Below, one piece after another: positions 9,780 through 56,453 of a stretch of DNA of 64,000 nucleotides. The first letter of the stretch is position 1. Each line of letters opens with the position of its first letter. This DNA comes from Gemmatimonadota bacterium. Lineage in GTDB: Bacteria; Gemmatimonadota; Gemmatimonadetes; Gemmatimonadales; GWC2-71-9. A program made the translations under genes and the position numbers. The notes below the pieces were generated by a model. The model was not told where the DNA came from. It was given only the letters and a program-made list of their open reading frames with translations, and did no database searches. The DNA lies in assembly GCA_003220795.1 (NCBI GenBank), contig QHTK01000058.1, forward strand, positions 756 to 64,755, given 5' to 3'.

Positions 9780-11479
9780 GGCCGGTCCTCGGACTGCTCC
9801 TGCTCGTGGTGGGTTGCGGGAACGGGGAAGGGGGAAGGGGGAAGGGGAACTACGATGTGCTCCTCCGTGGCGGCTGGATCGTGGACGGCAGCGGCAATCC
9901 GCGCTACCGGGGCGATGTGGCGATCGCGGGAGACCGAATCGCGGGCCTCGGGTTCCTGGCGGGCGCCCAGGCCCGCGAGACGCTCGATGTCTCGGGTCTC
10001 GTCGTGGCGCCGGGATTCATCGACATGATGGGGCAGTCGGAGATCAACGTGCTGATCGACAACCGCGTGCTGTCGAAGGTCACGCAGGGTGTCACGACGG
10101 AGGTGACGGGCGAAGGCGGCTCCATCGCGCCGCTCACCGACAAGCTGGTGCGCGACGACTCCGACGCGATGAAGAAGTGGCACTACCGCGAGGACTGGCG
10201 CGATCTGGACGGCTACGTCACCCAGCTCGAGCGCCACGGTTCCACGGTGAACATCGCGACGTTCGTGGGCGCGACCCAGGTGCGCCTCGCCGTGATCGGG
10301 AACGCGAACCGGCAGCCGACCACGCCCGAGCTCGCCCACATGGCGGCGTTGGTGGACACCCTGATGCAGCAAGGCGCGCTGGGCGTGTGGACCGCGCTCG
10401 AATACGCGCCGGCGAGCTACTCGACGACCAACGAAATCATCGCGCTCGCGCGAGCGGCGCGGCGCCACGGCGGCATCTATGCGTCGCACATGCGGAACGA
10501 GGGGATCCAGATCGACCAGGCGCTGAACGAGCTGTTCCGCGTCGCGCGGGAGGCCGACATCCCGGCCGAGGTCTCGCACCTCAAGGTGTCCGGCCGGGAC
10601 AGCTGGGGACAAATGCGCCGGGTGATCGCGCGCATTGATTCGGCGCGCGCCTCGGGTCTCGACGTCACCGCGGACCAGTATCCCTACATCAGGGCCGCGA
10701 CCGCGCTCGATGCCTCGATTCCCACGTGGGCGGAGAGCGGCGGCATGGACTCGCTGCTGGCGCGGCTCCGGGACCCGAGGACGCGGGCGCGGCTGCGCCA
10801 GGAGATGCTCCACCCCCGAGGGGGAGCGGAGAGTTTCTATTACGAAGCGGGCGGCGGCGCCGGTGTGCTGATCACCGGCACCTTCCAGGACTCGCTGCGC
10901 GGGCTGCAGGGCAAGACCATCGCCGAGATCGCCGCCGCCCGCCACCGCGACGCCGTCGAGACGCTGTTCGACATCGTGCTCGCCGAAGGCGGCCATCGCA
11001 CCGACGCCGTATACGCCGTGATGAGCGAGCCCGACGTCCAGGAAGCGATGAAGACGTGGTGGGTGGCCGTGAACACCGACTTCGGCGGCGTGGCGCCCGA
11101 CGGACCGCTCGGCAGCCAGTCCGCTCACCCTCGCGCCTATGGGACATTTGCCCGTATCCTTGGCCACTACGTGCGTGAGCTCAAGCTGTTCCCGCTCGAG
11201 TTCGCCGTGCGGAAGATGACCTCGCTCGCCGCGCAGCGGGTCGGGCTCGGGGACCGCGGCCTGCTCGCGCCCGGCATGGCCGCCGACATCACGATCTTCG
11301 ACGCCAACACCGTGGCCGACCGCGCCACGTTCGAGCGGCCGCATCAGCCGTCCGTGGGGTTCGCGTACGTGTTCGTGAACGGGCAGAAGGTGCTGGACCA
11401 CGGCGCGCTCACGGCCGCCCGGCCCGGTCGCGGGTTGCGGGGCCCCGGCTACGTGCCGCCCGAGCGCCGCGGGCGGTGA
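9767..11479 (+). CDS. D-aminoacylase-like (N-acyl-D-amino-acid deacylase family) amidohydrolase
   Basis: The lipoprotein signal is LLLLVVGC. The motifs DVLLRGGWIVDGSG...DVAIAGDRI...APGFIDMMGQSE and SHLKVSG, together with the C-terminal ADITIFD, resemble the D-aminoacylase family. Confidence 0.85.
   Translation: MGEMRPVLGLLLLVVGCGNGEGGRGKGNYDVLLRGGWIVDGSGNPRYRGDVAIAGDRIAGLGFLAGAQARETLDVSGLVVAPGFIDMMGQSEINVLIDNRVLSKVTQGVTTEVTGEGGSIAPLTDKLVRDDSDAMKKWHYREDWRDLDGYVTQLERHGSTVNIATFVGATQVRLAVIGNANRQPTTPELAHMAALVDTLMQQGALGVWTALEYAPASYSTTNEIIALARAARRHGGIYASHMRNEGIQIDQALNELFRVAREADIPAEVSHLKVSGRDSWGQMRRVIARIDSARASGLDVTADQYPYIRAATALDASIPTWAESGGMDSLLARLRDPRTRARLRQEMLHPRGGAESFYYEAGGGAGVLITGTFQDSLRGLQGKTIAEIAAARHRDAVETLFDIVLAEGGHRTDAVYAVMSEPDVQEAMKTWWVAVNTDFGGVAPDGPLGSQSAHPRAYGTFARILGHYVRELKLFPLEFAVRKMTSLAAQRVGLGDRGLLAPGMAADITIFDANTVADRATFERPHQPSVGFAYVFVNGQKVLDHGALTAARPGRGLRGPGYVPPERRGR
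9818..9850 (+). repeat. tandem G-rich heptamers (GGGGGAA-type), G-quadruplex-capable
   Basis: The sequence is GGGAACGGGGAAGGGGGAAGGGGGAAGGGGAAC, with G-runs of 3, 4, 5, 5 and 4 separated by AA(C). It lies just after the signal-peptide codons of the D-aminoacylase gene. Confidence 0.9.
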
Positions 11480-11853
11480 CCCTCGGCCGGCTCGTCGGCG
11501 CCTGGCTGCCGGTGGCCATCCTCTTCGCCGTCACGCCACCGATCGGATACCGCTGGGACCAGGCGATCGTCCAGAATGCTGTCGTGTGGTCGTTCAACCG
11601 CTGGGAGATCGGGTGGCGGGTCGCCGAGGCCGCAGTGGTGACGCTGTTCGCGGCGCTGTGGTTCGACTCGCTCGGTGCGGGCGGCTGGTGGCTGCTCTTC
11701 TTCCTGGTCGGTCTACTCGTCGCCTTCCCGCGGCGTCTCGTCATGTGGCAGTACGTGGAGCCCCGGCGCCGGCGCGCGCTGCTGGCGCACGCGTCGCTCG
11801 ACGTGGCCCGCTATGTCGGGGCGGGGGCGTTGCTGGCCTGGAGACTCGGCTAG
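11476..11853 (+). CDS. small integral membrane protein, unknown function
   Basis: GTG 11476 overlaps the upstream stop (GTGA). The 125-aa product has 3-4 hydrophobic segments. I recognise no family. Confidence 0.5.
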   Translation: MTLGRLVGAWLPVAILFAVTPPIGYRWDQAIVQNAVVWSFNRWEIGWRVAEAAVVTLFAALWFDSLGAGGWWLLFFLVGLLVAFPRRLVMWQYVEPRRRRALLAHASLDVARYVGAGALLAWRLG

Positions 11854-11906: not shown

Positions 11907-12476
11907 GTGGGCCAGACAACGACCAACCTCGTGCCACGTCGCGACGATCCGCCCGTGGATGACCGCGCGCTCGTGGAGCAGCTGCGGGGCGGCGATCAAA
12001 CCGCTCTGGCAGGACTCTATCACCGGCACGCCGGCCGGCTCCTCGGCATCGCCTTCCGGCTGACGGGCTCGCGCAGCGAGGCAGAGGACGTAGTGCAGGA
12101 CGTGTTCGTCGGGCTCCCCCTCGCCGTCCGGCGTTACCACGAACAGGGGGAGTTCGTGGGTTGGCTTCGCACCGTCACCGTTCGTGTGGCGCTGGGTCAT
12201 CTCCGGCGAGAGGGGCGCCGCCGGCAAGTGCCGCTGAACCCGCTTTCGGAGCCGTCGGGGGGAGCGGGGCCGGAGGCGCTGGGGGAGCGGTTGGAGCTCG
12301 AGCGAGCCATCACCACGCTCCCGGACGCCCTGCGCACTGTGTTCGTGTTGAAGGAAGTCGCAGGCTATTCGCACGCGGAGATCGGTCGCATGCTGGGAAT
12401 CCGCACCGGAACGAGCGAAGTGCGTTTGTGCCGAGCCATTCGCACACTGCGACGCGTCCTGGGGAGGGTGCAATGA
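11907..12476 (+). CDS. ECF-type RNA polymerase sigma-70 factor
   Basis: Region 2 reads AEDVVQDVFVGL and region 4 reads LPDALRTVFVLKEVAGYSHAEIGRMLGIRTGTSEVRL. The start codon is uncertain. Confidence 0.85.
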   Translation: MGQTTTNLVPRRDDPPVDDRALVEQLRGGDQTALAGLYHRHAGRLLGIAFRLTGSRSEAEDVVQDVFVGLPLAVRRYHEQGEFVGWLRTVTVRVALGHLRREGRRRQVPLNPLSEPSGGAGPEALGERLELERAITTLPDALRTVFVLKEVAGYSHAEIGRMLGIRTGTSEVRLCRAIRTLRRVLGRVQ

Positions 12477-14620
12477 TCGGGCCGTTACTGCACGCGAGGG
12501 AGCAGACACTCAAGCGGTTCGCCGACGGCGAGCTTCCGCCGCAGACTCGGGAGCGAGTCGCCGCTCATCTGGCTCGTTGCGTCGCGTGTCGGGGTTACGT
12601 CGCGTTCGCGCGAGAGCTGCGGGCCCGCGTGGTCGCGCTCGACGCAGTGACCGCCGCTCCGGGGCTGTTGGACCGCGTCACTGCGCGGCTGGCAGCCGGA
12701 GACAACGTGATCCTTCCAGTGGCCGACCCACGACCTACGCACGTGGTGGGAAGCGTCCCCGCCGCAATCGCGGCGAGTGTGCTGGTGCTCGCGACCGCGT
12801 GGCTGCTGTGGCCCACGCCTCATTTGAGCGCGGGTTCAAGCGAGGGCCTGCTGCGGTTCTCGCCTGCCCGACCGCTCGCCGGCGCGACGCTGCAGGTAGA
12901 GTACCGCGCTTCCGCCCTGCTGGCCGGCCCCGATCGGCTCGTGCTGCGCGCCAGGTTCCGCACACCGCGCGATGACCCCTACAACCGCGGCATGCGGCAG
13001 ACCACGGCGGGCGTGCTGACCCGCGTGGACCGCGAGCTGTATCGCGGCTCACTCCGGCTCCCCGACTCTGTCGTTTACGCCGTGTTCGCAGTGGAGGACT
13101 CAGGCGGCCGACACGTGGACAGCAACGGGAGCCGCCTGTGGGAGCTGCTTGTACACGACACCCTGGGGCGCCCGACCTTCGATGCCCTGACTCAGCGCGA
13201 ACACGACCTGATGGGCCGCAACTGGGAGCTTGGCTACGAGACCGCGCGTCGGGTAGCGGCGCTGTACCCCGAGCGGATCGAGAGCTGGTCGAATCTCCTC
13301 TTTTACGAGAAGCACGTGCTCGGCGAATCACACCTCGACAGCACCCTCGTTAGCCACCGGGCTCGCCTGAAGGCATTTCACGCCCGGCTCAACTCACAGA
13401 CAACGCCCTCTTCCGACGACCTGGGCTTCATGTTCTGGTACGCCCTCTCGATAGGCGACTCGACCCTCGAGGCGTATTGGAAGGACCGGTTGGAACGCGA
13501 GGCGCCACGGTCGCCGTTCGCGGCGCAGAACCGCGCCCTCGCAATCTCCGCGCGGATGTGGAAGGACAAGGACTCGCTCCGCGCGCTGGCCGACATGGAC
13601 CGGTTATGGGACGACGTGGGGCCGGCGCACGGCAACGTCGTAAACGTGGGATGGAGGGTGGCCCAGATCGTGGGGGATTCCGCGGGGCTGGTCCGCTGGG
13701 CAAGCCACTATTTGGACATGAACCGCGGCGACTCCGCATGGATCGCGACCGCGTTCACCCGCTATTCCGGCCTGCGGAACGAAGGGATGCGGCTGCTGCG
13801 TCAGGAGCTCCACGCACTCGACACCCCGGACGACGCGCGGCGGTCGCTCGAGCACACGGTCGAGGAGCAACGCGCGGCTGATGCAGCGAACGCGCGCTCA
13901 CTCCTGGCCGTGCTGGGCCAGGCGCTGGTCGCAAGCGGACACGCCACGGCGGGACTCGATACGCTCGACCTGGCGGTCCGCGAAGGGTGGGACGTCGCCC
14001 TCTTCCGGGACGTCGCGCGCACCCGCCTGGCAACCGGTGACACCGCCGGCGCGCTTACGCTGCTCGCGTTCGCGGCCGCGGACCCCGCTGCCGAGAGCTG
14101 GACGGTGGACTCGACCCGCCGGTTCATCGGCAGCGCCGTGGACACCGCGTCCTGGGGCCGTGCCGTGGAACACGGGCGCTTCGAGATGCGGAGTCGCGTG
14201 CTGGACCGCGCCACCCGCCGCCCCCTGCCTGCGAGCATCCGTCTGGAACGGGCCGCCGGGCGCCTCGTGCGCTTCGACTCGCTGGCGCGCGGCCGGGTGA
14301 CCTTCGTCGCCTTCTGGTCCCGGCGGTGCGGCCCATCGCTCGAGGAGCTGCCCGCCCTGGAGCGCATGACGGCGCGGCTGCGGCGCCAAGGCGTCGGGAT
14401 TGTCACCGTTACCGACGAGCGCATGTCGGAAGAGCTGCAGCGGTTCCTCGTCGCCAAACATCTCTCCTTCCCGGTCTACGGCGACGTGTGGCGAGACGCG
14501 AGCCGCGCCTTCAACCAGTGGGGCACGCCTTCCTATTTCGTAGTGGACGCGAGCGGGCAGGTCCGGTTCGCGTACCGCGACCTCAAACGGACGCCGGCCG
14601 AAGTCGCCGTCTTGCAGTAG
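12473..14620 (+). CDS. transmembrane anti-sigma factor (zf-HC2) with a large periplasmic domain ending in a TlpA/ResA-like thioredoxin fold with a CGPS motif
   Basis: It overlaps the sigma gene by ATGA. It has the H-x3-C-x2-C motif (HLARCVAC) and one TM segment (AAIAASVLVLATAWLLW). The C-terminus reads VTFVAFWSRRCGPSLEELP...GTPSYFVVD. Confidence 0.8.
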   Translation: MIGPLLHAREQTLKRFADGELPPQTRERVAAHLARCVACRGYVAFARELRARVVALDAVTAAPGLLDRVTARLAAGDNVILPVADPRPTHVVGSVPAAIAASVLVLATAWLLWPTPHLSAGSSEGLLRFSPARPLAGATLQVEYRASALLAGPDRLVLRARFRTPRDDPYNRGMRQTTAGVLTRVDRELYRGSLRLPDSVVYAVFAVEDSGGRHVDSNGSRLWELLVHDTLGRPTFDALTQREHDLMGRNWELGYETARRVAALYPERIESWSNLLFYEKHVLGESHLDSTLVSHRARLKAFHARLNSQTTPSSDDLGFMFWYALSIGDSTLEAYWKDRLEREAPRSPFAAQNRALAISARMWKDKDSLRALADMDRLWDDVGPAHGNVVNVGWRVAQIVGDSAGLVRWASHYLDMNRGDSAWIATAFTRYSGLRNEGMRLLRQELHALDTPDDARRSLEHTVEEQRAADAANARSLLAVLGQALVASGHATAGLDTLDLAVREGWDVALFRDVARTRLATGDTAGALTLLAFAAADPAAESWTVDSTRRFIGSAVDTASWGRAVEHGRFEMRSRVLDRATRRPLPASIRLERAAGRLVRFDSLARGRVTFVAFWSRRCGPSLEELPALERMTARLRRQGVGIVTVTDERMSEELQRFLVAKHLSFPVYGDVWRDASRAFNQWGTPSYFVVDASGQVRFAYRDLKRTPAEVAVLQ

Positions 14621-14661
14621 GTCGCCGGGAAGGCTCTAGCCGCAGTATCTTCGGTGGACTC

Positions 14662-15717
14662 ATGTCCACCGAATCCGTGACCGCCATCCGGCTGACGCGC
14701 TACTCGCACGGCGCGGGCTGAGCCTGCAAGCTCGGCCCCGCCGAGCTGGCGCAGGTCCTGCGTCACGTGCCCGCCGCGACGGATCCCCGGATCCTCGTCG
14801 ACGCCGCCACCCGCGACGACGCCGCCGTGTTTCGCTTCACGGCCGATCGCGCGATCGTGGCGACGGTGGACTTCTTCACGCCCATCGTGGACGATGCGTA
14901 CGACTTCGGGCGCATCGCCGCGGCGAACGCCTTCTCCGACGTCTACGCCATGGGCGCCACGCCGCTGCTCGCCCTCAACCTCGTGGGCTGGCCCCGCGAC
15001 ACCCTCCCGTACGACCTGCTGGGCGAAGTGCTGCGCGGCGGCGCGGACGTGGCGCGCGCCGCCGGCGCGTTCGTCTTGGGCGGCCATTCCATCGACGACC
15101 CCGAGCCCAAGTACGGCATGGCGGTGATCGGCGAGGTGCACCCCGACCGCATCGTCACCAACGCGGGCGCGCGGCCGGGTGACGCCCTGGTGCTCACCAA
15201 GCCGATCGGCACCGGCGTCCTGACGACGGCGCTGAAGCGCGACTTGCTCTCCGAACCGGAGCTCGCGCCCGCGGTGACGGTGATGACGACCCTCAACGCC
15301 GCCGCGGCGCGCGCGATGCTGGCGGTCGGCGTCCACGCCGCGACCGACGTAACCGGGTTCGGCCTGCTGGGCCATCTGCACAGCCTGCTCGAGGCAAGTG
15401 GCGCCGCGGCGGAGGTCACGGCACACGCGGTGCCGCTGCTGCCGCACGCGCGCGACATGGCGGCCCGCGGGGCCGTGCCCGGCGGCACACAGCGCAACCT
15501 GACGAGCCTCGCCGATTCGGTGAGCTTCGCCGCGGGCGTGGACGAGACCGCTCGCGTGCTGCTGAGCGACGCGCAGACCTCGGGCGGCTTGCTGATCGCG
15601 GTGGCGCCCGATCGCGTGGCGGGACTGGTGGCCGGGTTGGAGCGCGCCGGGTCGCCCGCCGCCGCCGTCATCGGCCGCGTGGTCGCCGGGCCGCCCGGGC
15701 GGGTGGCGGTCGGGTAG
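14662..15717 (+). CDS. selD: selenide, water dikinase (selenophosphate synthetase), selenocysteine-containing form (in-frame TGA at 14719-14721)
   Basis: Track ORFs 14326..14721 and 14767..15717 are in the same frame. Joined, they read MSTESVTAIRLTRYSHGAG-TGA-ACKLGPAELAQVL...TRDDAAVF...VDFFTPIVDDAYDFGRIAAANAFSDVYAMG. This matches the E. coli SelD N-terminus IRLTQYSHGAG-C-GCK. The product is 351 aa, a normal SelD length. Confidence 0.9.
14719..14755 (+). promoter_or_regulatory. UGA-Sec recoding site with a SECIS-like stem-loop
   Basis: The hairpin starts 2 nt after the TGA. CCTGC (14723-27) pairs with GCAGG (14751-55), and AGCTCGG (14729-35) pairs with CCGAGCT (14741-47). The apical loop is CCCCG and there is an asymmetric internal loop. 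Confidence 0.6.
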
Positions 15718-15727
15718 CGGGGGCCCC

Positions 15728-15964
15728 GTGGCGACGATCCGCGAGTTCACCAGCCTTACGCCGGACGCGCTCGATGCCTTGGAATGGGCGGTGCGGGAGC
15801 GGCGCCGAGTGGCGCTGCGGCGCCGCGGGACCGAATATGTCGTCGTGGCCGAACGGCTCGATACCGGGGAGCGCGAGGAAGCGCTTCAGGGGAGGCTTCC
15901 GATGACGGGGGAGATCCTGGACTTCCCGCTGCGCGAGCTCGAATCCTTCGCCGTGCTGCCCTAG
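15728..15964 (+). CDS. hypothetical small protein (78 aa)
   Basis: The ORF fits exactly between the selD stop and the USP gene start. I recognise no motifs. Confidence 0.4.
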   Translation: MATIREFTSLTPDALDALEWAVRERRRVALRRRGTEYVVVAERLDTGEREEALQGRLPMTGEILDFPLRELESFAVLP

Positions 15965-35031: not shown

Positions 35032-36018
35032 CTACGGCAGCTGCCAGATCTCGACGCGGTTCGCGGTGAGCACGGGAATGAGCACGCGGTTTCGCTTCGC
35101 GTCGTACCCGATGTCGGCCGGGCTCGGAATGCTCGTGACGAGCTTTACCTCCTGACCGGTCTCGTAGCTCGACACGGTGGAATCACTCCAGCTCGAGACG
35201 AGGATCTTGCCGCCGACGACCACGACGCCGTCGAACCCGCCAGGTCCCTTGGCGATCACAGTCGGCGCCTTGTCCTCCGGCTTCCACGCGAGCACCGATC
35301 GTCCACCGAATTCGACGATCACGAAGCGCTTGCCCACGGGGTCGAGCGCGATCCCGTTCGGCCGGCCCAGCGTGTCCCCCCGCACCGCCACCGTCACCTT
35401 GCGATCGGGGCCGATCCGGAACACCCGGTCCGGGCCCGGGTGCAGCACGTTCCCCACGTCGTCGAACTTGATGCCTGAGTCGGTGATGTAGAGCGCGCCC
35501 GTTTGCGCGATCGCGATGTCGTTCAGAAACACGGCGCCCAGCGTCGCAAGACTCACACTGTCGCGAGGGGCCCCGGTTCGGGCGTCGAACGCGCGCACGA
35601 CGTCGATGTCGGCCACCCAGAGCGTATCCCCCAGCAGCGCCAGCCCCTTCGGGGCGTGAAGCGTGACACCGTTGTGGCCGCCCTCGATGAACTTGAGGTT
35701 TTCGACCGCCCCGTCCGGCCGCACTCGGCTGATGAAGCCGTTGTCGTCCTTCGCCGTGGGGCTGCCGTTGATGTTTGAGACGAAATAGATGTCCTGCGCC
35801 GTGTCATGCAACACCGACTCCGGCGCGAGGAATCCTGCGATGGTGGCGACTCTCGTGGCGGCCGGAGGCGGCGGCGTGAGAGGCGGTGGCGCCGGCGACA
35901 CGTGGACGGCCGTGGAGTCCGCCGGCGTCCCCGGGGTCTGGGACGCGGACGGTCTCCTGACCGCGGGCTCGCAGGCCGCGCCCGCGGCGAGCAGCGCGCA
36001 CACCACGCTCCGCCTCAT
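35032..36018 (-). CDS. beta-propeller lipoprotein (SMP-30/gluconolactonase/NHL-like)
   Basis: It overlaps the EF-G paralogue by ATGA. The lipobox is LLAAGAC. Blade-like segments repeat (LYITDSG, PNGIALDP, LWVADI). The track ORF's N-terminal extension was rejected. Confidence 0.7.
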   Translation of the reverse strand: MRRSVVCALLAAGAACEPAVRRPSASQTPGTPADSTAVHVSPAPPPLTPPPPAATRVATIAGFLAPESVLHDTAQDIYFVSNINGSPTAKDDNGFISRVRPDGAVENLKFIEGGHNGVTLHAPKGLALLGDTLWVADIDVVRAFDARTGAPRDSVSLATLGAVFLNDIAIAQTGALYITDSGIKFDDVGNVLHPGPDRVFRIGPDRKVTVAVRGDTLGRPNGIALDPVGKRFVIVEFGGRSVLAWKPEDKAPTVIAKGPGGFDGVVVVGGKILVSSWSDSTVSSYETGQEVKLVTSIPSPADIGYDAKRNRVLIPVLTANRVEIWQLP

Positions 36019-38114
36019 GAGGCCTTCGCCTCCGCCATCTCTTTCTTGCGCGTCTCGATCAGCTTGTGGGCCACCTCCGCCGGCACTTCCTGGTAGACGT
36101 GGAATTTCGACCGGTACGTCCCCCGGCCGTGTGTCAGCGAGTGCAGCGCGGTTGCGTAGCGGTCGAGCTCCGCCTCGGGCACGAGCGCCTTCACTTTGGT
36201 GAGCCGGCCATCCTTTTCGGTGCCCATGATGTGGCCCCGTCGGGAAGAGAGGTCGCCCATCACGGCACCCTGATACTCGTCGGGCGTCCACACGTCGACT
36301 TCCAGGATGGGCTCGAGCAGCACCGGTTTGCAGTTCGGGCTCACGTTCCGGAACGCCAGGATGCCGGCCATCTTGAACGACATTTCGTTGGAGTCGACGT
36401 CGTGGTAGGAGCCGTCGTACAGCTCCACCTTGAAGTCCACCACCGGATACCCCGCCACCGGGCCGCGGGCCGCAGCCTCCTGAATACCGCGCTCCACCGC
36501 CGGGATATACTGGCGCGGGATCACGCCGCCGACGATCTCGTCCGCGAATTGTAACCCGGAGCCCCGGGGCAGCGGAGCAATGCGGATCCAACAGTCGCCG
36601 TACTGGCCGCGGCCGCCGGTCTGCTTCTTATGCTTCCCCTGGCCTTCGGCCTTCCCCCGGAACGTCTCGCGATAGGCGACTCGCGGCTTCGTGGTCACGG
36701 CGTGCACGCCGTACTTGCGCGCCAGCCGGCCCACGATGATTTCGAGATGCCGCTCGCCCAGCCCACGGATCAGCGTCTGTTGCAGCTCCGCGTTGTACTC
36801 GTGCTGGAAGGTCGGGTCCTCCTCGTGCAGCTTGTGCAGGCCGTTCGAGAGCTTCTCTTCCTCGCCGCGCTGCTTGACTTCGATCGCCACGGTGATGACG
36901 GGCTCCGGGAACGGGATCTTGCGCAGCACGATCGGCGCCTCCCGGGTGGACAGCGTGTCGTTCGTGTGCGTGTCGCGCAGCTTCGCGACGACCCCGATGT
37001 CGCCGGCGTGCAGCTCGGCGATCTCGAAGCGGTCCTTCCCGACGTTGACGCACAAGTGGTTCAGCTTCTCGACCGCGGAGCGGGGGGCGTTATACACGTC
37101 CTGCCCGTTGCGCACCGCGCCGGAATAGACGCGAAAGTAGGTCACATCTCCCACGTGCGGCTCGGACATCGTCTTGAACACCTGCGCGACGAACGGCCCG
37201 CCATCCTCCGCCCGCAGCATGATCCGCTCGGCGCTACCCCACTTCTGGGCCTCGACCGGGGGGCGCTCGTCGGGCGCGGGGAAGAGCTCCACCATTTTGG
37301 ACAAGAGGGCGCGCGTCCCGTACGTCAGCTCCGCCGCGCCGCAGAACAGCGGGAATAACTCGCCGTGCGCCATCCCCGCCTTCATGGCGGCGATCGCCTC
37401 ATCCCGCCCGATCTCCTCGCCGCCCAGGTAGCGCTCGAGCAGGGTGTCGTCGGTCTCGGCGATGCGCTCGATCAGCTCCTTCGAGTACCGGTCGAACCGC
37501 TCGCGGTACTCCTCCGGGACGTCCACCTCCTCGTACTCGCCCGCCTTCGTCCCCTTCTTGTACAGGTGACACTTCTTCGAAAACAGATTGATGATCCCGT
37601 GGAAGTCGGGGCCTTCGCCCACGGGGATCTCCACCGGGATCACCTTCGGCGTCAGCTGCCGCTTGATCTGCTCGTACACCCGCTCGAAGCCGGCGTGCTC
37701 CTTGTCCATCAAGGAGACGAAAAACAGCCGCGGGATCCCGCGCCCCTCACAGTAGTCCCACACCTTCTCGGTGCCCACCTCGACCCCACCGGTGGCCGAG
37801 ACGACCACCACGGCGCCGTCCGCCGCGTACACGCCCGCCAGCGCCTCCCCCGTGAAGTCGAGATAGCCGGGTGTGTCGATGAGGTTGAGCTTGGTGTCCA
37901 TCCATTCGGCGACCGCCAAGGCGAGATTGATGGAGTACTTGCGCTCGATTTCGTCGGGAGTGTAATCGGTGAGAGCCGTGCCGTCCTTCACGGCGCCGTG
38001 GCGTTTGCTGGTACCGGCCACGAACGCGAGCGCGTCGACCAGTGAGGTCTTGCCGCTCGCGCCGTGGCCCACGACCGCGACGTTGCGAATCTCCGGTGTC
38101 TTGTACACGCGCAT
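36015..38114 (-). CDS. elongation factor G paralogue (EF-G2-like translational GTPase)
   Basis: The G1 motif is VVGHGASGKTSL and G3 is LIDTPGYLDF. The 699-aa product covers all EF-G domains II-V (GDIGVV, HEEDPTF, PVVDFKVELYDGSYHDVDS). Its P-loop differs from the canonical AHIDAGKTT. Confidence 0.92.
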   Translation of the reverse strand: MRVYKTPEIRNVAVVGHGASGKTSLVDALAFVAGTSKRHGAVKDGTALTDYTPDEIERKYSINLALAVAEWMDTKLNLIDTPGYLDFTGEALAGVYAADGAVVVVSATGGVEVGTEKVWDYCEGRGIPRLFFVSLMDKEHAGFERVYEQIKRQLTPKVIPVEIPVGEGPDFHGIINLFSKKCHLYKKGTKAGEYEEVDVPEEYRERFDRYSKELIERIAETDDTLLERYLGGEEIGRDEAIAAMKAGMAHGELFPLFCGAAELTYGTRALLSKMVELFPAPDERPPVEAQKWGSAERIMLRAEDGGPFVAQVFKTMSEPHVGDVTYFRVYSGAVRNGQDVYNAPRSAVEKLNHLCVNVGKDRFEIAELHAGDIGVVAKLRDTHTNDTLSTREAPIVLRKIPFPEPVITVAIEVKQRGEEEKLSNGLHKLHEEDPTFQHEYNAELQQTLIRGLGERHLEIIVGRLARKYGVHAVTTKPRVAYRETFRGKAEGQGKHKKQTGGRGQYGDCWIRIAPLPRGSGLQFADEIVGGVIPRQYIPAVERGIQEAAARGPVAGYPVVDFKVELYDGSYHDVDSNEMSFKMAGILAFRNVSPNCKPVLLEPILEVDVWTPDEYQGAVMGDLSSRRGHIMGTEKDGRLTKVKALVPEAELDRYATALHSLTHGRGTYRSKFHVYQEVPAEVAHKLIETRKKEMAEAKAS

Positions 38115-38184
38115 CGCGCAGGCAGCTCCGGCAGGGGATCAGGAGAATATGAGGCGGCAAACAGTGACTAGGCTAGACTCCCGC

Positions 38185-50363: not shown

Positions 50364-50378
50364 GCTTAGATTCCGCAC

Positions 50379-50882
50379 GTGCTCGCCACACGCACCTATC
50401 TCGAGCTGACCACGCCCGGACAGTTCCAGGCCGCGTTTGGGCAGTTTCCCGACGTCGTGCTCGAGCGCGTCGCCCAGCCCACCCCCGAGCTGTACCGTCA
50501 CTGCTACCGCACGGTGGGCGAGGCCTACCACTGGCGTGACCGCTGGGACTGGACCGATGCAGAGATCCGGGCGCACCTGGCCAAGCCCGAGATCACCTTG
50601 TACGTGGCGCGCCGGCGCGGCACGCTGGCAGGGTGGTACGAGCTGCGGCGCGTCCCGGAGGACGACTCGGTGGAGATCGCGTACTTCGGACTCTCCCCCG
50701 ACGCCATCGGCCGGGGCCTCGGCAGGCACCTGCTGTCGTGCGCCGTGCGCGACGCCTGGGCGCTCGAGCCCGCGCGCGTGTGGCTCCACACGTGCACGCT
50801 GGACCATCCCCATGCGTTGCCGAACTACCGAAACCGGGGGTTCGTGCCGTACAAGACGGAGCAATACGAGGCAGATTACTGA
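50379..50882 (+). CDS. GNAT-family N-acetyltransferase
   Basis: Motif A reads GLSPDAIGRGLGRHLL, followed by NYRNRGF. Confidence 0.75.
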   Translation: MLATRTYLELTTPGQFQAAFGQFPDVVLERVAQPTPELYRHCYRTVGEAYHWRDRWDWTDAEIRAHLAKPEITLYVARRRGTLAGWYELRRVPEDDSVEIAYFGLSPDAIGRGLGRHLLSCAVRDAWALEPARVWLHTCTLDHPHALPNYRNRGFVPYKTEQYEADY

Positions 50883-51286
50883 GTGGGACTGTTTCCGGGT
50901 AGATTCCCCGGCGTGAACTTTACGTTGACGCGCAAGACCAAGCTCATCATCGCGGCGGTCCTGCTCGTGCCGATCGTGGTGTTCGTGCTGTACACGTGGA
51001 GCGCCCTGACGTGGAGCTACTCGAAGGGGGAGCGCGCGGGATACGTCCAGAAATTCTCCAAGAAGGGCTGGATCTGTAAGACGTGGGAAGGGGAGTTGGC
51101 CATCGTTTCGATCCCGGGGACCATGTCGGAGAAGTTCTACTTCACCGTGCGGGACGATTCGGTCGCCGCACGGATCAACCAGTCGATGGGAAAACGGGTC
51201 GCGCTCACGTACCAACAGCACATGGGCATCCCGACGAGCTGCTTCGGAGAAACCCAGTACTTCGTCGTGGACGTGAAGGCGGTGGA

Positions 51287-51290
<4 letters not shown>
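50883..51290 (+). CDS. hypothetical membrane-anchored protein
   Basis: It starts directly after the GNAT stop and has one TM segment ([17 protein letters not shown]). It overlaps acnA by ATGA. I recognise no family. Confidence 0.5.
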
Positions 51291-54646: not shown

Positions 54647-55123
54647 CTAGCTTCCAGCGTTACCGATCGCCCGCACCCGGGATTCGAGCGCGAGCTGCTC
54701 GAGCTTCTCGAGCGGCAGCGCCAGGAGCAGATCGATCCGCCGGCTCAGCAACACGAACGCGTCCCGGAAGGCCGCCCGCTTAGTGACTCCATCGCCGTCG
54801 ACCTCCGCGGGGTCCGGCATGCCCCAGTGCGCCAGGATCGGCTGGCCCGGGAAGATCGGGCACGCTTCCTTGGCGCGATCGCACACCGTCACCACGAAGT
54901 CCCAATGCTCGCGCTCCAGGCCGTCCACGCCGCGCGGCGCATGGCCGGCCCAGGGGATGCCGTGCTCGCGCAGCGTAGCGATGGCCAAGGGGTTCACTTG
55001 CGCCGCGGGCCGGGACCCGGCGCTGTACGCCTCGAACCGATCCTTCCCCTTCCAGTTGAGGAGCGCTTCCGCCATCTGGCTGCGGGCGGAGTTGCCGGTG
55101 CACAGGAACAGGACGCGAAACAT
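54647..55123 (-). CDS. arsC: arsenate reductase, LMW-PTP/thioredoxin-coupled type
   Basis: The P-loop is LCTGNSARS (CX5R). The downstream Cys pair lies in VTVCDRAKEACP. Confidence 0.9.
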   Translation of the reverse strand: MFRVLFLCTGNSARSQMAEALLNWKGKDRFEAYSAGSRPAAQVNPLAIATLREHGIPWAGHAPRGVDGLEREHWDFVVTVCDRAKEACPIFPGQPILAHWGMPDPAEVDGDGVTKRAAFRDAFVLLSRRIDLLLALPLEKLEQLALESRVRAIGNAGS

Positions 55124-55126
55124 CCG

Positions 55127-55885
55127 CTATCCGAGCGGTTTGTGCGCCCACACGAATGCACTGAACAGCTCACCCCCGACGGCGCGCGCGTCGTCGAACT
55201 CGTGGATCCGGGTCGGCTCGATGCCGATCGCCTCGAACCCGACCTCCGCCAGCAGGCGCCGATATTCGACCTCCTCCAAGGCGCCGGCCACGCACCCCAC
55301 CCACAGCTCCACGTCGCGTCGCACCGCCGCGGGAAGCGCTCCGCGCACCACCACGTCCGACACGGCGAACCGGCCCCCCGGCTTGAGCACGCGGAATGCT
55401 TCGGCGAGCACCCGGCGCTTGTCGGCCGAAAGGTTGATCACGCAGTTCGAGATGACTACGTCCACCGACGCGTCCGGCAACGGAATGCGCTCGATCTCCC
55501 CTTTCAGGAACTCCACGTTCGCGACACCGGCCTTGCGCTGATTCTCGCGCGCCAGGTCGAGCATTTCATCGGTCATGTCGAGGCCGTAGGCCTTCCCGGT
55601 CGGTCCAACGCGCCGGGCGGACAAAAGGACGTCGATCCCGCCGCCGGAGCCCAGGTCGAGAACCACCTCGCCCGCGTGTAGCTCGGCCAGCGCGGTCGGG
55701 TTGCCGCAGCCGAGCGACGCGCGCACCGCCCCTTCCGGGAGCGCGGCGGTCTCGGCCACATCATACAGGTTCGAACTGACGGGATCGCAGGCACAGCCGC
55801 AGTCGCCGCGCTCGCCGCCCAGCACGCGCTGCGCCACGTGCCCGTATTTCTGTTTCACCGTCTCCTTGATCTGGTCGCTGTTCAT
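55127..55885 (-). CDS. arsM: arsenite S-adenosylmethionine methyltransferase
   Basis: The SAM motif is [11 protein letters not shown]. The conserved cysteines lie in CGCACD, LGCGNP, SNCVINL and VGCVAG. The start is placed at ATG 55885. Confidence 0.88.
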
Positions 55886-55925
55886 GTGATGCCGTCTCCT
55901 TGTCGACAAATTCCCGAGAGACACG

Positions 55926-56252
55926 TTAGCCGCAGCACGCTCGGGCACAGCTTCCGGCATGCTTGCCCGGCTTCACGTCGGACGCGAACTCCGCGATTTC
56001 GTCGAGCGCCTCACGATTCAACGCGTAGTAGACCCAGCGCCCGTCCCGACGATCGCTCACGAGCCCCGCATCCTTGAGCGTTTTCAAATGGAAGGACAGA
56101 CGCGATTGCGCGCAGTCGAGCACGTCCTGCAGCTCGCACACGCAGCGCTCGCCGTGCGAGAGCAGCCGCACGATCTCGAGCCGGGTCTCGTCCGAGAGCG
56201 CGTGGAACCACCGGGCGGCCCGGCCGATGTTGGGGAGCGTGGTCGAGGACAT
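55926..56252 (-). CDS. arsR: ArsR/SmtB-family metalloregulator
   Basis: The motifs are ALSDETRLEIVRLL, the As(III)-site CVCEL and the wHTH segment SRLSFHLKTLKDAGLV. The start is placed at ATG 56252, downstream of the operator palindrome. Confidence 0.88.
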   Translation of the reverse strand: MSSTTLPNIGRAARWFHALSDETRLEIVRLLSHGERCVCELQDVLDCAQSRLSFHLKTLKDAGLVSDRRDGRWVYYALNREALDEIAEFASDVKPGKHAGSCARACCG

Positions 56253-56260
56253 GATCGGGG

Positions 56261-56288
56261 AATATATCAAATTATCTTGATATATCAA
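56261..56288 (-). promoter_or_regulatory. ars promoter with an operator palindrome
   Basis: This is an AT-rich island. The inverted repeat ATATATCAA (56262-70) / TTGATATAT (56277-85) has a 6-bp spacer. The minus strand reads TTGATA-N16-TATATT, ending 8 nt before the arsR ATG. Confidence 0.55.
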
Positions 56289-56453
56289 CGGGAGGGTTGC
56301 TCTGGCGCCCCTGGGGCAGGATGTTCCCCCTCATGGCCAGACTGATGGCCGGCGCCGGGCTGGCCGCGTCAACACCATCTCGATCGCCGTCGCGCGGAGC
56401 CCGGAGCGCACCGCGATCTATTTGCGTGCCGGGCTCATGTTCTGACTGGAGCC

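Follow-up and report, generated by a model that had tools for sequence, protein, structure and literature searches.

Is the selD gene of a Gemmatimonadota bacterium cut short by an in-frame TGA, or is this TGA read as selenocysteine (Sec)? The question is raised by a 64,000-nucleotide stretch of DNA (contig QHTK01000058.1 of assembly GCA_003220795.1, hereafter the window), in which two open reading frames (ORFs), 14326..14721 and 14767..15717, follow each other on the + strand. A first-pass annotation of the window had proposed that both ORFs belong to one selD gene, split by a TGA at the catalytic Cys/Sec codon. All coordinates given here are positions in the 64-kb window, and the gene, 14662..15717, lies on the + strand. 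Judged from the comparison with related loci, the TGA at 14719-14721 is very probably the selenocysteine codon of a full-length selD.

A full-length selD gene with a TGA at the catalytic position

The ORF list and the translation confirmed that the two ORFs share one frame, and the translation of 14662-15717 reads MSTESVTAIRLTRYSHGAG*ACKLGPAEL..., with one internal stop and a TAG end at 15715-15717. The main features of the gene are as follows.

14662..15717, + strand: full-length selD (selenide, water dikinase), 351 residues, with the predicted Sec as residue 20 and the stop TAG at 15715-15717
14719..14721, + strand: UGA codon, predicted Sec codon, at the position of E. coli SelD Cys17
14767..14769, + strand: false GTG start of gene callers, yielding a 316-aa product without the catalytic loop

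The start of selD is ATG 14662, which is sensible because the upstream gene stops at 14620 in a different frame. GTG 14677 is a possible alternative and matches the position of the ATG in several relatives, 14 codons before the TGA.

For profile and structure searches, the in-frame TGA was replaced with Cys in the joined product. The first-pass annotation had asked for an alignment to SelD models of the TIGR00476 type, and the product exceeded the cut-off of this selD equivalog model by far (408 bits against 125, residues 10-318); it also matched NF002098 (400.6 bits, cut-off 299, residues 7-343). The PurM-like two-domain layout was recovered, with AIRS (PF00586) at residues 52-159 and AIRS_C (PF02769) at residues 171-349. 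On this sequence evidence, 14662..15717 is a full-length SelD gene.

Alignment with E. coli SelD (PDB 3u0o; 291 bits, residues 7-348) placed the TGA on Cys17 of IRLTQYSHGAGCGCK (loop IRLTQYSHGAG-C-GCK), which bears out its proposed location at the catalytic codon. The glycine-rich loop of the window product, SHGAG-U-ACK, aligned to SHGAG-C17-GCK20 (residues 12-20) of the E. coli protein, in which mutant work has reportedly shown Cys17 and Lys20 to be essential. The motifs RDDAAV, VDFF, NAxSDxYAMG and TDVTGFG were conserved in the same alignment; they contain the Asp residues and the Asn that serve as metal and ATP ligands in E. coli SelD. Compared with this Cys-type enzyme, the catalytic loop and the ATP/metal motifs are alike; the E. 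coli protein carries Cys17 (TGC) and needs no recoding signal, whereas the window gene has a TGA, predicted to encode Sec. A start at 14767 would indeed remove the catalytic SHGAG-U-xCK segment, as had been predicted.

The TGA itself recurred in independent DNA and RNA data. DNA contigs from four independent soil metagenome runs (different studies) had no variant at 14719-14721, neither a TGC nor a TGT, and the same contigs did carry strain variants at 14774, 14775, 14836, 14839 and 14847. Two metatranscriptome contigs, 14686-14804 and 14716-14805, span the TGA with zero differences, although this RNA support is thin, with a depth of about 2 and possible DNA carry-over.

The gene was then compared with 80 related loci from species-representative genomes, in 73 of which the SelD loop motif was located. 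The codon at the Cys/Sec site is TGA in 35 of the 73 and TGC or TGT in the other 38, and its flanks are kept as SHG[AS]G_[AG]CK, the well-known exchange of Sec and Cys. The TGA loci comprise 19 from Gemmatimonadales/Gemmatimonadota, 10 from Actinomycetota, 5 from the Myxococcota-like Anaeromyxobacter/"delta proteobacterium" genomes and 1 unclassified. TGA-type selD thus spans at least three phyla and includes the cultured Anaeromyxobacter terrae SG22, from a genus whose SelD selenoprotein has already been described (PMC1794560).

With the window gene added, all 36 Sec-type genes have an in-frame start 13-24 codons before the TGA and retain the loop, which contradicts the idea that relatives might begin at the equivalent of 14767. 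Over the 11 codons before the TGA, the mean pairwise difference at codon positions 1/2/3 was 0.25/0.17/0.50 in Sec-type genes and 0.23/0.15/0.58 in Cys-type genes. Variation dominated by third positions means that the upstream segment is under coding selection, in the frame of the remaining gene, and therefore that the UGA has to be read through. Genome-wide reassignment of UGA was tried as an explanation and rejected, since TGA, the commonest type of stop in the window, terminates 25 of the 43 ORFs with high GC content at third codon positions (GC3).

The setting of the gene is that of an ordinary chromosome. The window has a GC content of 69%, and its other genes include gyrA, EF-G, aconitase, murB, thiolase, gamma-glutamyltranspeptidase and ECF sigma/anti-sigma pairs (Pfam, about 50 ORFs). 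The nearest genomic relatives of selD are all metagenome-assembled genomes of soil Gemmatimonadales/Gemmatimonadota, and more than 90% of the sampled sequence words were present in twenty soil metagenome runs.

Hairpins downstream of the UGA

A bacterial selenocysteine insertion sequence (SECIS) is expected just behind a Sec codon, and the first-pass annotation had pointed to a single stem-loop at 14723-14755. We found two ways in which this segment can fold, built from the following elements.

14729..14747, + strand: hairpin H1, arms 14729-14736/14740-14747, loop CCC at 14737-14739, covering the codons K-L-G-P-A-E-L
14748..14764, + strand: hairpin H2, arms 14748-14754/14758-14764, loop GUC at 14755-14757
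14722..14756, + strand: alternative lower stem, 14722-14727 paired with 14751-14756, closing a long stem-loop

The stem-loop 14723-14755 does fold (-21.6 kcal/mol). H1, which begins 7 nt past the UGA, is its upper helix, and the lower stem and H2 are mutually exclusive. In the window sequence the two arrangements are equal in energy: -24.3 kcal/mol for fold A (lower stem and H1) and -24.4 kcal/mol for fold B (H1 and H2), with values of -13.2 kcal/mol for H1 and -8.6 kcal/mol for H2. Taken as a single sequence of 69% GC, the segment 14719-14765 folded weakly better than chance (z = -2.3; 5 of 200 shuffles folded equally well), and the longer segment 14715-14775 gave z = -1.65.

What lifts the structure above chance is the comparison among species. 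Alignment A1 holds 54 nt from the TGA onward of 32 distinct Sec-type genes, and alignment A2 the matching 54 nt of 38 Cys-type genes. Standard pairs of H1 and H2 together were found in 90.8% of cells in Sec-type and 60.7% in Cys-type genes. None of 500 shuffles reached the observed pairing for the Sec-type set, compared with 147 of 500 for the Cys-type set, although the Sec-type sequences are mutually related, so that this control overstates the significance. Compensatory changes occurred in 9 of the 15 pairs of the Sec-type alignment, and controls with slid partners gave only 29-41% pairing, all this in a region that is also protein-coding.

Taken singly, H1 was paired in 88% of Sec-type cells (69% in Cys-type), with 5 of 8 pairs compensatory, for example CUCGG/CCGAG changing to AUCCG/CGGAU. 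H2 separated the two types more sharply, with 93.8% of cells paired in Sec-type against 51.5% in Cys-type genes; 4 of its 7 pairs were compensatory, for example GCGCAG/CUGCGC changing to GCCCAG/CUGGGC or GCGCAC/GUGCGC. When pair counts were extended to 36 Sec-type and 42 Cys-type genes, H2 had at least 6 of its 7 pairs in 33 of the former and 5 of the latter (Fisher p = 4e-13). The lower stem of fold A behaved differently: none of its 6 pairs showed a compensatory change, it was disrupted wherever column 6 or 9 varied, and pair 6-36 was broken in 11 of the 32 Sec-type sequences. The stem-loop described in the first-pass annotation therefore stands in part, in that it folds and its upper helix covaries, whereas its lower stem is without compensatory change and competes with H2.

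The published consensus of bacterial SECIS elements (bSECIS) requires an apical loop of 3-9 nt, an upper stem of 4-16 bp, a minimum free energy of -7.5 kcal/mol or below, a G in the first two loop positions (mostly then G/U) and a loop 16-37 nt away from the UGA (PMC13188914). H2 agrees with the consensus in full, having a GUC loop, a 7-bp stem, a spacing of 33 nt and -8.6 kcal/mol. H1 fails it, with a spacing of 15 nt and a G in the first two loop positions in only 5 of 32 sequences. Given its covariation and its fit to the consensus, H2 is assigned as the best candidate for the SelB-binding hairpin, the likely apical hairpin of the SECIS. A covariance model built from the Sec-type alignment scored 79.6 bits at the selD site, and the next site in the window reached only 12.8 bits (E 0.09).

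Different structures were seen in three Sec-type loci of Actinomycetota with the loop HGSG-U-ACK (L060, L063 and L078), where H2 is not formed (3-4 of 7 pairs). L063 and L078 have a different hairpin nearer the UGA, such as GCCCCAAG-GAC-UUGGGGC in L063, and L060 has a weaker, different fold. The SECIS of SelD is not uniform among phyla.

Decoding of the UGA and competing explanations

We propose that translation would initiate at ATG 14662 or GTG 14677, that SelB would deliver selenocysteyl-tRNA(Sec) to the UGA at 14719-14721 with insertion of Sec at the position of E. coli Cys17, and that translation would then run on to the TAG at 15715-15717. The signal would consist of the two tandem hairpins within the coding sequence just past the UGA, with H2 as the hairpin bound by SelB and H1 as a spacer helix. 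With the UGA in the A site, the lower-stem nucleotides would lie inside the ribosome, and H2 would be free to form. We hold it highly probable, with Sec insertion deduced from sequence, that the selD product is itself a selenoprotein.

Besides the thin RNA support and the relatedness of the aligned sequences, several observations weigh against this proposal. No match to selA was obtained by tblastn with E. coli SelA (NC_000913.3) in the window or in the 80 related loci, and a search with E. coli SelB likewise gave no selB, whether in the window or, for the 80 relatives, up to 6 kb from selD. SelB matched only one place in the window, the GTPase domain encoded by the EF-G gene (36015-38138), which we rejected. 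Exact-protein look-ups added about 9 kb to the left and about 7 kb to the right of the region from the same organism, and neither selA nor selB was among the genes called in these roughly 17 kb of extra flank. With ARAGORN, the window yielded no tRNA gene and no tRNA-Sec turned up close to selD in the 80 related loci, and a scan of the whole window against Rfam at gathering thresholds gave no Sec-related match. Around the TGA site, Rfam matches with E up to 10 were chance matches only (PrrB/RsmZ, BTH_s1 and an internal ribosome entry site). The window also holds no second selenoprotein candidate with an in-frame TGA according to a GC3-based scan. As to the signal, the GU of the H2 loop, with which the loop opens in 32 of 32 Sec-type sequences, is dictated by a Val codon and also frequent among Cys-type genes (34 of 38), so that only the H2 stem discriminates between the two types; in the closest relatives the long stem-loop, and not H1 plus H2, is the lowest-energy fold; and the H1 codons are where the database BSepDB puts the SECIS of another SelD.

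The machinery must accordingly lie elsewhere in the genome, and we infer the presence of selA, selB and selC there; Sec machinery genes are usually located away from selD. Since this machinery was unseen, the claim that the organism decodes UGA as Sec rests on comparative evidence, which speaks for it, with the missing selA, selB and selC in window and flanks on the other side. Pfam searches of about 50 ORFs in the window revealed no selU/ybbB, yqeB/C or formate dehydrogenase either.

The rival closest to our proposal concerns the signal. The functional SECIS could be the single long stem-loop with apical loop CCC, or H1 alone, leaving H2 incidental or accessory. Most close relatives have the long stem-loop as their lowest-energy fold, it ties with H1 plus H2 in the window, H1 covaries, and the H1 codons K-L-G-P-A-D/E-L are the same as those of the SECIS that BSepDB gives for Acetomicrobium mobile SelD (PMC13326102). 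Nevertheless, none of the six lower-stem pairs is compensatory, one of them (6-36) is broken in about a third of the sequences (11/32), and the H1 loop lacks the expected G in most of them and lies 15 nt from the UGA, short of the 16-37 nt range. Moreover, given the minimal SECIS spacing of 11 nt in E. coli fdhF, the 7-nt spacer would put the 5' arm of H1 within the mRNA channel of the ribosome, or right at it, while the UGA is decoded. We therefore regard this alternative as doubtful, though worth keeping in mind. It would also be possible to read the start/UGA region as a regulatory device tying SelD synthesis to the supply of selenium or SelB, in which case SelD would need its own product for its synthesis and a positive feedback loop would result; this seems unlikely to us. 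Such a reading would draw on the long stem-loop, which pairs some of the nucleotides beside the UGA and in the window excludes H1 plus H2 at equal energy, and on a conserved 10-bp hairpin that covers the ATG and a Shine-Dalgarno-like motif.

The other rivals deny the selenoprotein as such. The UGA might be decoded as something other than Sec, as Cys by a tRNA(Sec)-like tRNA charged with cysteine or as Trp by near-cognate read-through, giving a selenium-free enzyme of Cys or variant type; selA was not found in the window and related loci, and a passage of PMC13582414 mentions non-canonical tRNAs that recode UGA alongside SECIS elements. As the site is the canonical Sec/Cys position of a widespread selenoprotein (PMC5029168, PMC1794560), the SECIS-type hairpin is conserved, and the repeated switches from TGA to TGC (at least 12 on the tree below) fit Sec-to-Cys conversions, we consider such decoding very improbable. 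Even less can be said for a real product of 316 aa from GTG 14767 with an untranslated upstream frame. This is the form entered in public protein collections, but it has no SHGAG-U/C-xCK loop, the loop and an upstream start are kept with third-position variation in all 36 Sec-type genes, and Cys-type orthologues are full-length (346-357 aa); it is hardly credible. Least of all do we believe in a nonsense mutation or assembly error, by which selD would be a pseudogene or truly Cys-type. The Sec machinery is unseen in about 81 kb of genome, as such a reading would allow, and yet the same TGA recurs in four DNA runs, in RNA contigs and in 35 other genomes, the codons upstream of it are under coding selection, and a covarying RNA structure follows it in TGA-bearing genes only. 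We give this explanation practically no weight.

The selenocysteine-type selD proposed here resembles known cases in most respects. The E. coli fdhF SECIS is the best characterised bacterial SECIS; the hairpins of the window are like it as stem-loop structure placed 3' of the UGA within the coding sequence, with G then U in a small apical loop, but they show no sequence similarity to it and no Rfam match, they are two and not one, and the G/U loop is farther from the UGA, within 16-37 nt. Haemophilus influenzae and Aquifex aeolicus have Sec-type SelD, and PDB 2yye/2zod is the Aquifex enzyme. Further examples of Sec-containing SelD come from Anaeromyxobacter, Geobacter and Clostridium. Among bacterial selenoproteins, SelD and FdhA are the two with the widest distribution (PMC1794560, PMC5029168). 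The window gene shares with the known Sec-type SelD the TIGR00476 family, the Sec position in the N-terminal glycine-rich loop, a SECIS-type structure just downstream, frequent misannotation, and Sec-to-Cys conversions with SECIS remnants. It differs in its host, a soil Gemmatimonadales, and in that the consensus-like hairpin comes second in a tandem of two, at 33 nt from the UGA, whereas it is the first in the published Acetomicrobium SelD.

Sec-type selD itself is a well-known phenomenon, and the finding is correct but ordinary; it leaves the understanding of Sec biology unchanged. What may be new is Gemmatimonadota as a selenoprotein lineage, together with the arrangement of two covarying hairpins of which the second is consensus-like. 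No report of selenoproteins in Gemmatimonadota or Gemmatimonas was found in the literature searched. The gene implies that soil Gemmatimonadales decode UGA as selenocysteine, and a further, unlikely possibility is that SelD is the sole selenoprotein for which these soil bacteria, largely aerobic, keep the Sec trait.

Sec/Cys exchange, public annotation and gene neighbourhood

Sec-type and Cys-type SelD are interspersed when 78 sequences are placed on a neighbour-joining tree, with at least 12 changes by parsimony. The nearest Cys-type relatives of the window gene, L082 and L084, have TGC at the site and 80% identity, encode amino acids identical to those of the window across the hairpin stretch, and keep the pairs of H1 (8/8 or 7/8) and H2 (7/7) intact. 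In more distant Cys-type genes H2 is lost, with 3/7 and 5/7 pairs. By their sequences, L082 and L084 have the look of genes that passed from Sec to Cys very recently and still carry a fossil SECIS. Conversion in SelD that leaves SECIS remnants is a known pattern (PMC1794560), and Inoue et al. 2024 are cited for likewise describing it in a passage of PMC13582414. Pairs of Sec and Cys forms at 75-80% identity, some with an intact fossil SECIS, offer a natural series for studying SECIS decay.

The expectation that gene callers miss the true selD proved right. In protein collections the window product and more than 60 relatives (82-100% identity) are stored as 316-323 aa, beginning just past the TGA, and the full-length relatives held there (75-80% identity, 346-357 aa) are Cys-type with HGAGCACK. 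SelD is "frequently misannotated" according to BSepDB (PMC13326102). Both the window organism and at least 19 related Gemmatimonadales genomes have their true selD stored publicly without its catalytic residue, and a survey that works from such gene calls will misjudge how this abundant soil phylum uses selenium.

Two further features lie next to the gene.

14650..14673, + strand: start-codon hairpin, 10 bp, TTCGGTGGAC-tcat-GTCCACCGAA, enclosing the ATG and a Shine-Dalgarno-like GGTGGA
15728..15964, + strand: ORF of 78 aa, 10 nt past selD, without cysteine

The 55-nt segment holding the start-codon hairpin folds at -20.4 kcal/mol. L005, L006 and L072, and for the most part L032, preserve its helix through paired changes despite differing N-terminal residues, and L001, L002 and L011 lack it; from this pattern the hairpin may control translation initiation of selD. 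The 78-aa ORF has no Pfam or NCBIfam match. In about 36 Gemmatimonadales loci of both Sec and Cys type, tblastn places it immediately after selD, at 50-90% identity, and by this distribution it is a lineage-specific gene linked to selD.

The gene order in relatives is amidohydrolase, a membrane protein of 106-112 aa, selD, the 78-aa ORF, Usp, RNase H, dCMP deaminase and a zinc-ribbon protein. The arrangement differs in the window and in L088-L090: the small membrane protein (11476-11850) is there separated from selD by an ECF sigma factor (11907-12476) and an anti-sigma-like protein of 715 aa (12473-14620). At its C-terminus, this 715-aa protein carries a thioredoxin/AhpC-TSA domain with the motif CGPS.

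Among the candidates from the GC3-based scan were only antisense shadows and a gene junction at 50880, which were rejected. At 50370-51290, a GNAT acetyltransferase ORF stops at TGA 50880-50882 and is followed in the same frame by a 135-aa ORF of no family with a predicted membrane segment; this TGA looks like a gene junction and not a recoding site, and gene callers give two genes (L091). An arsenic-type cluster lies on the - strand at 54647-56330 and consists of an ArsR-like helix-turn-helix protein, an ArsM-like S-adenosylmethionine methyltransferase (55127-55972) and a low-molecular-weight phosphatase/ArsC-like protein (54647-55126), the ArsM-like and ArsC-like genes abutting in one frame with a TAG between them.

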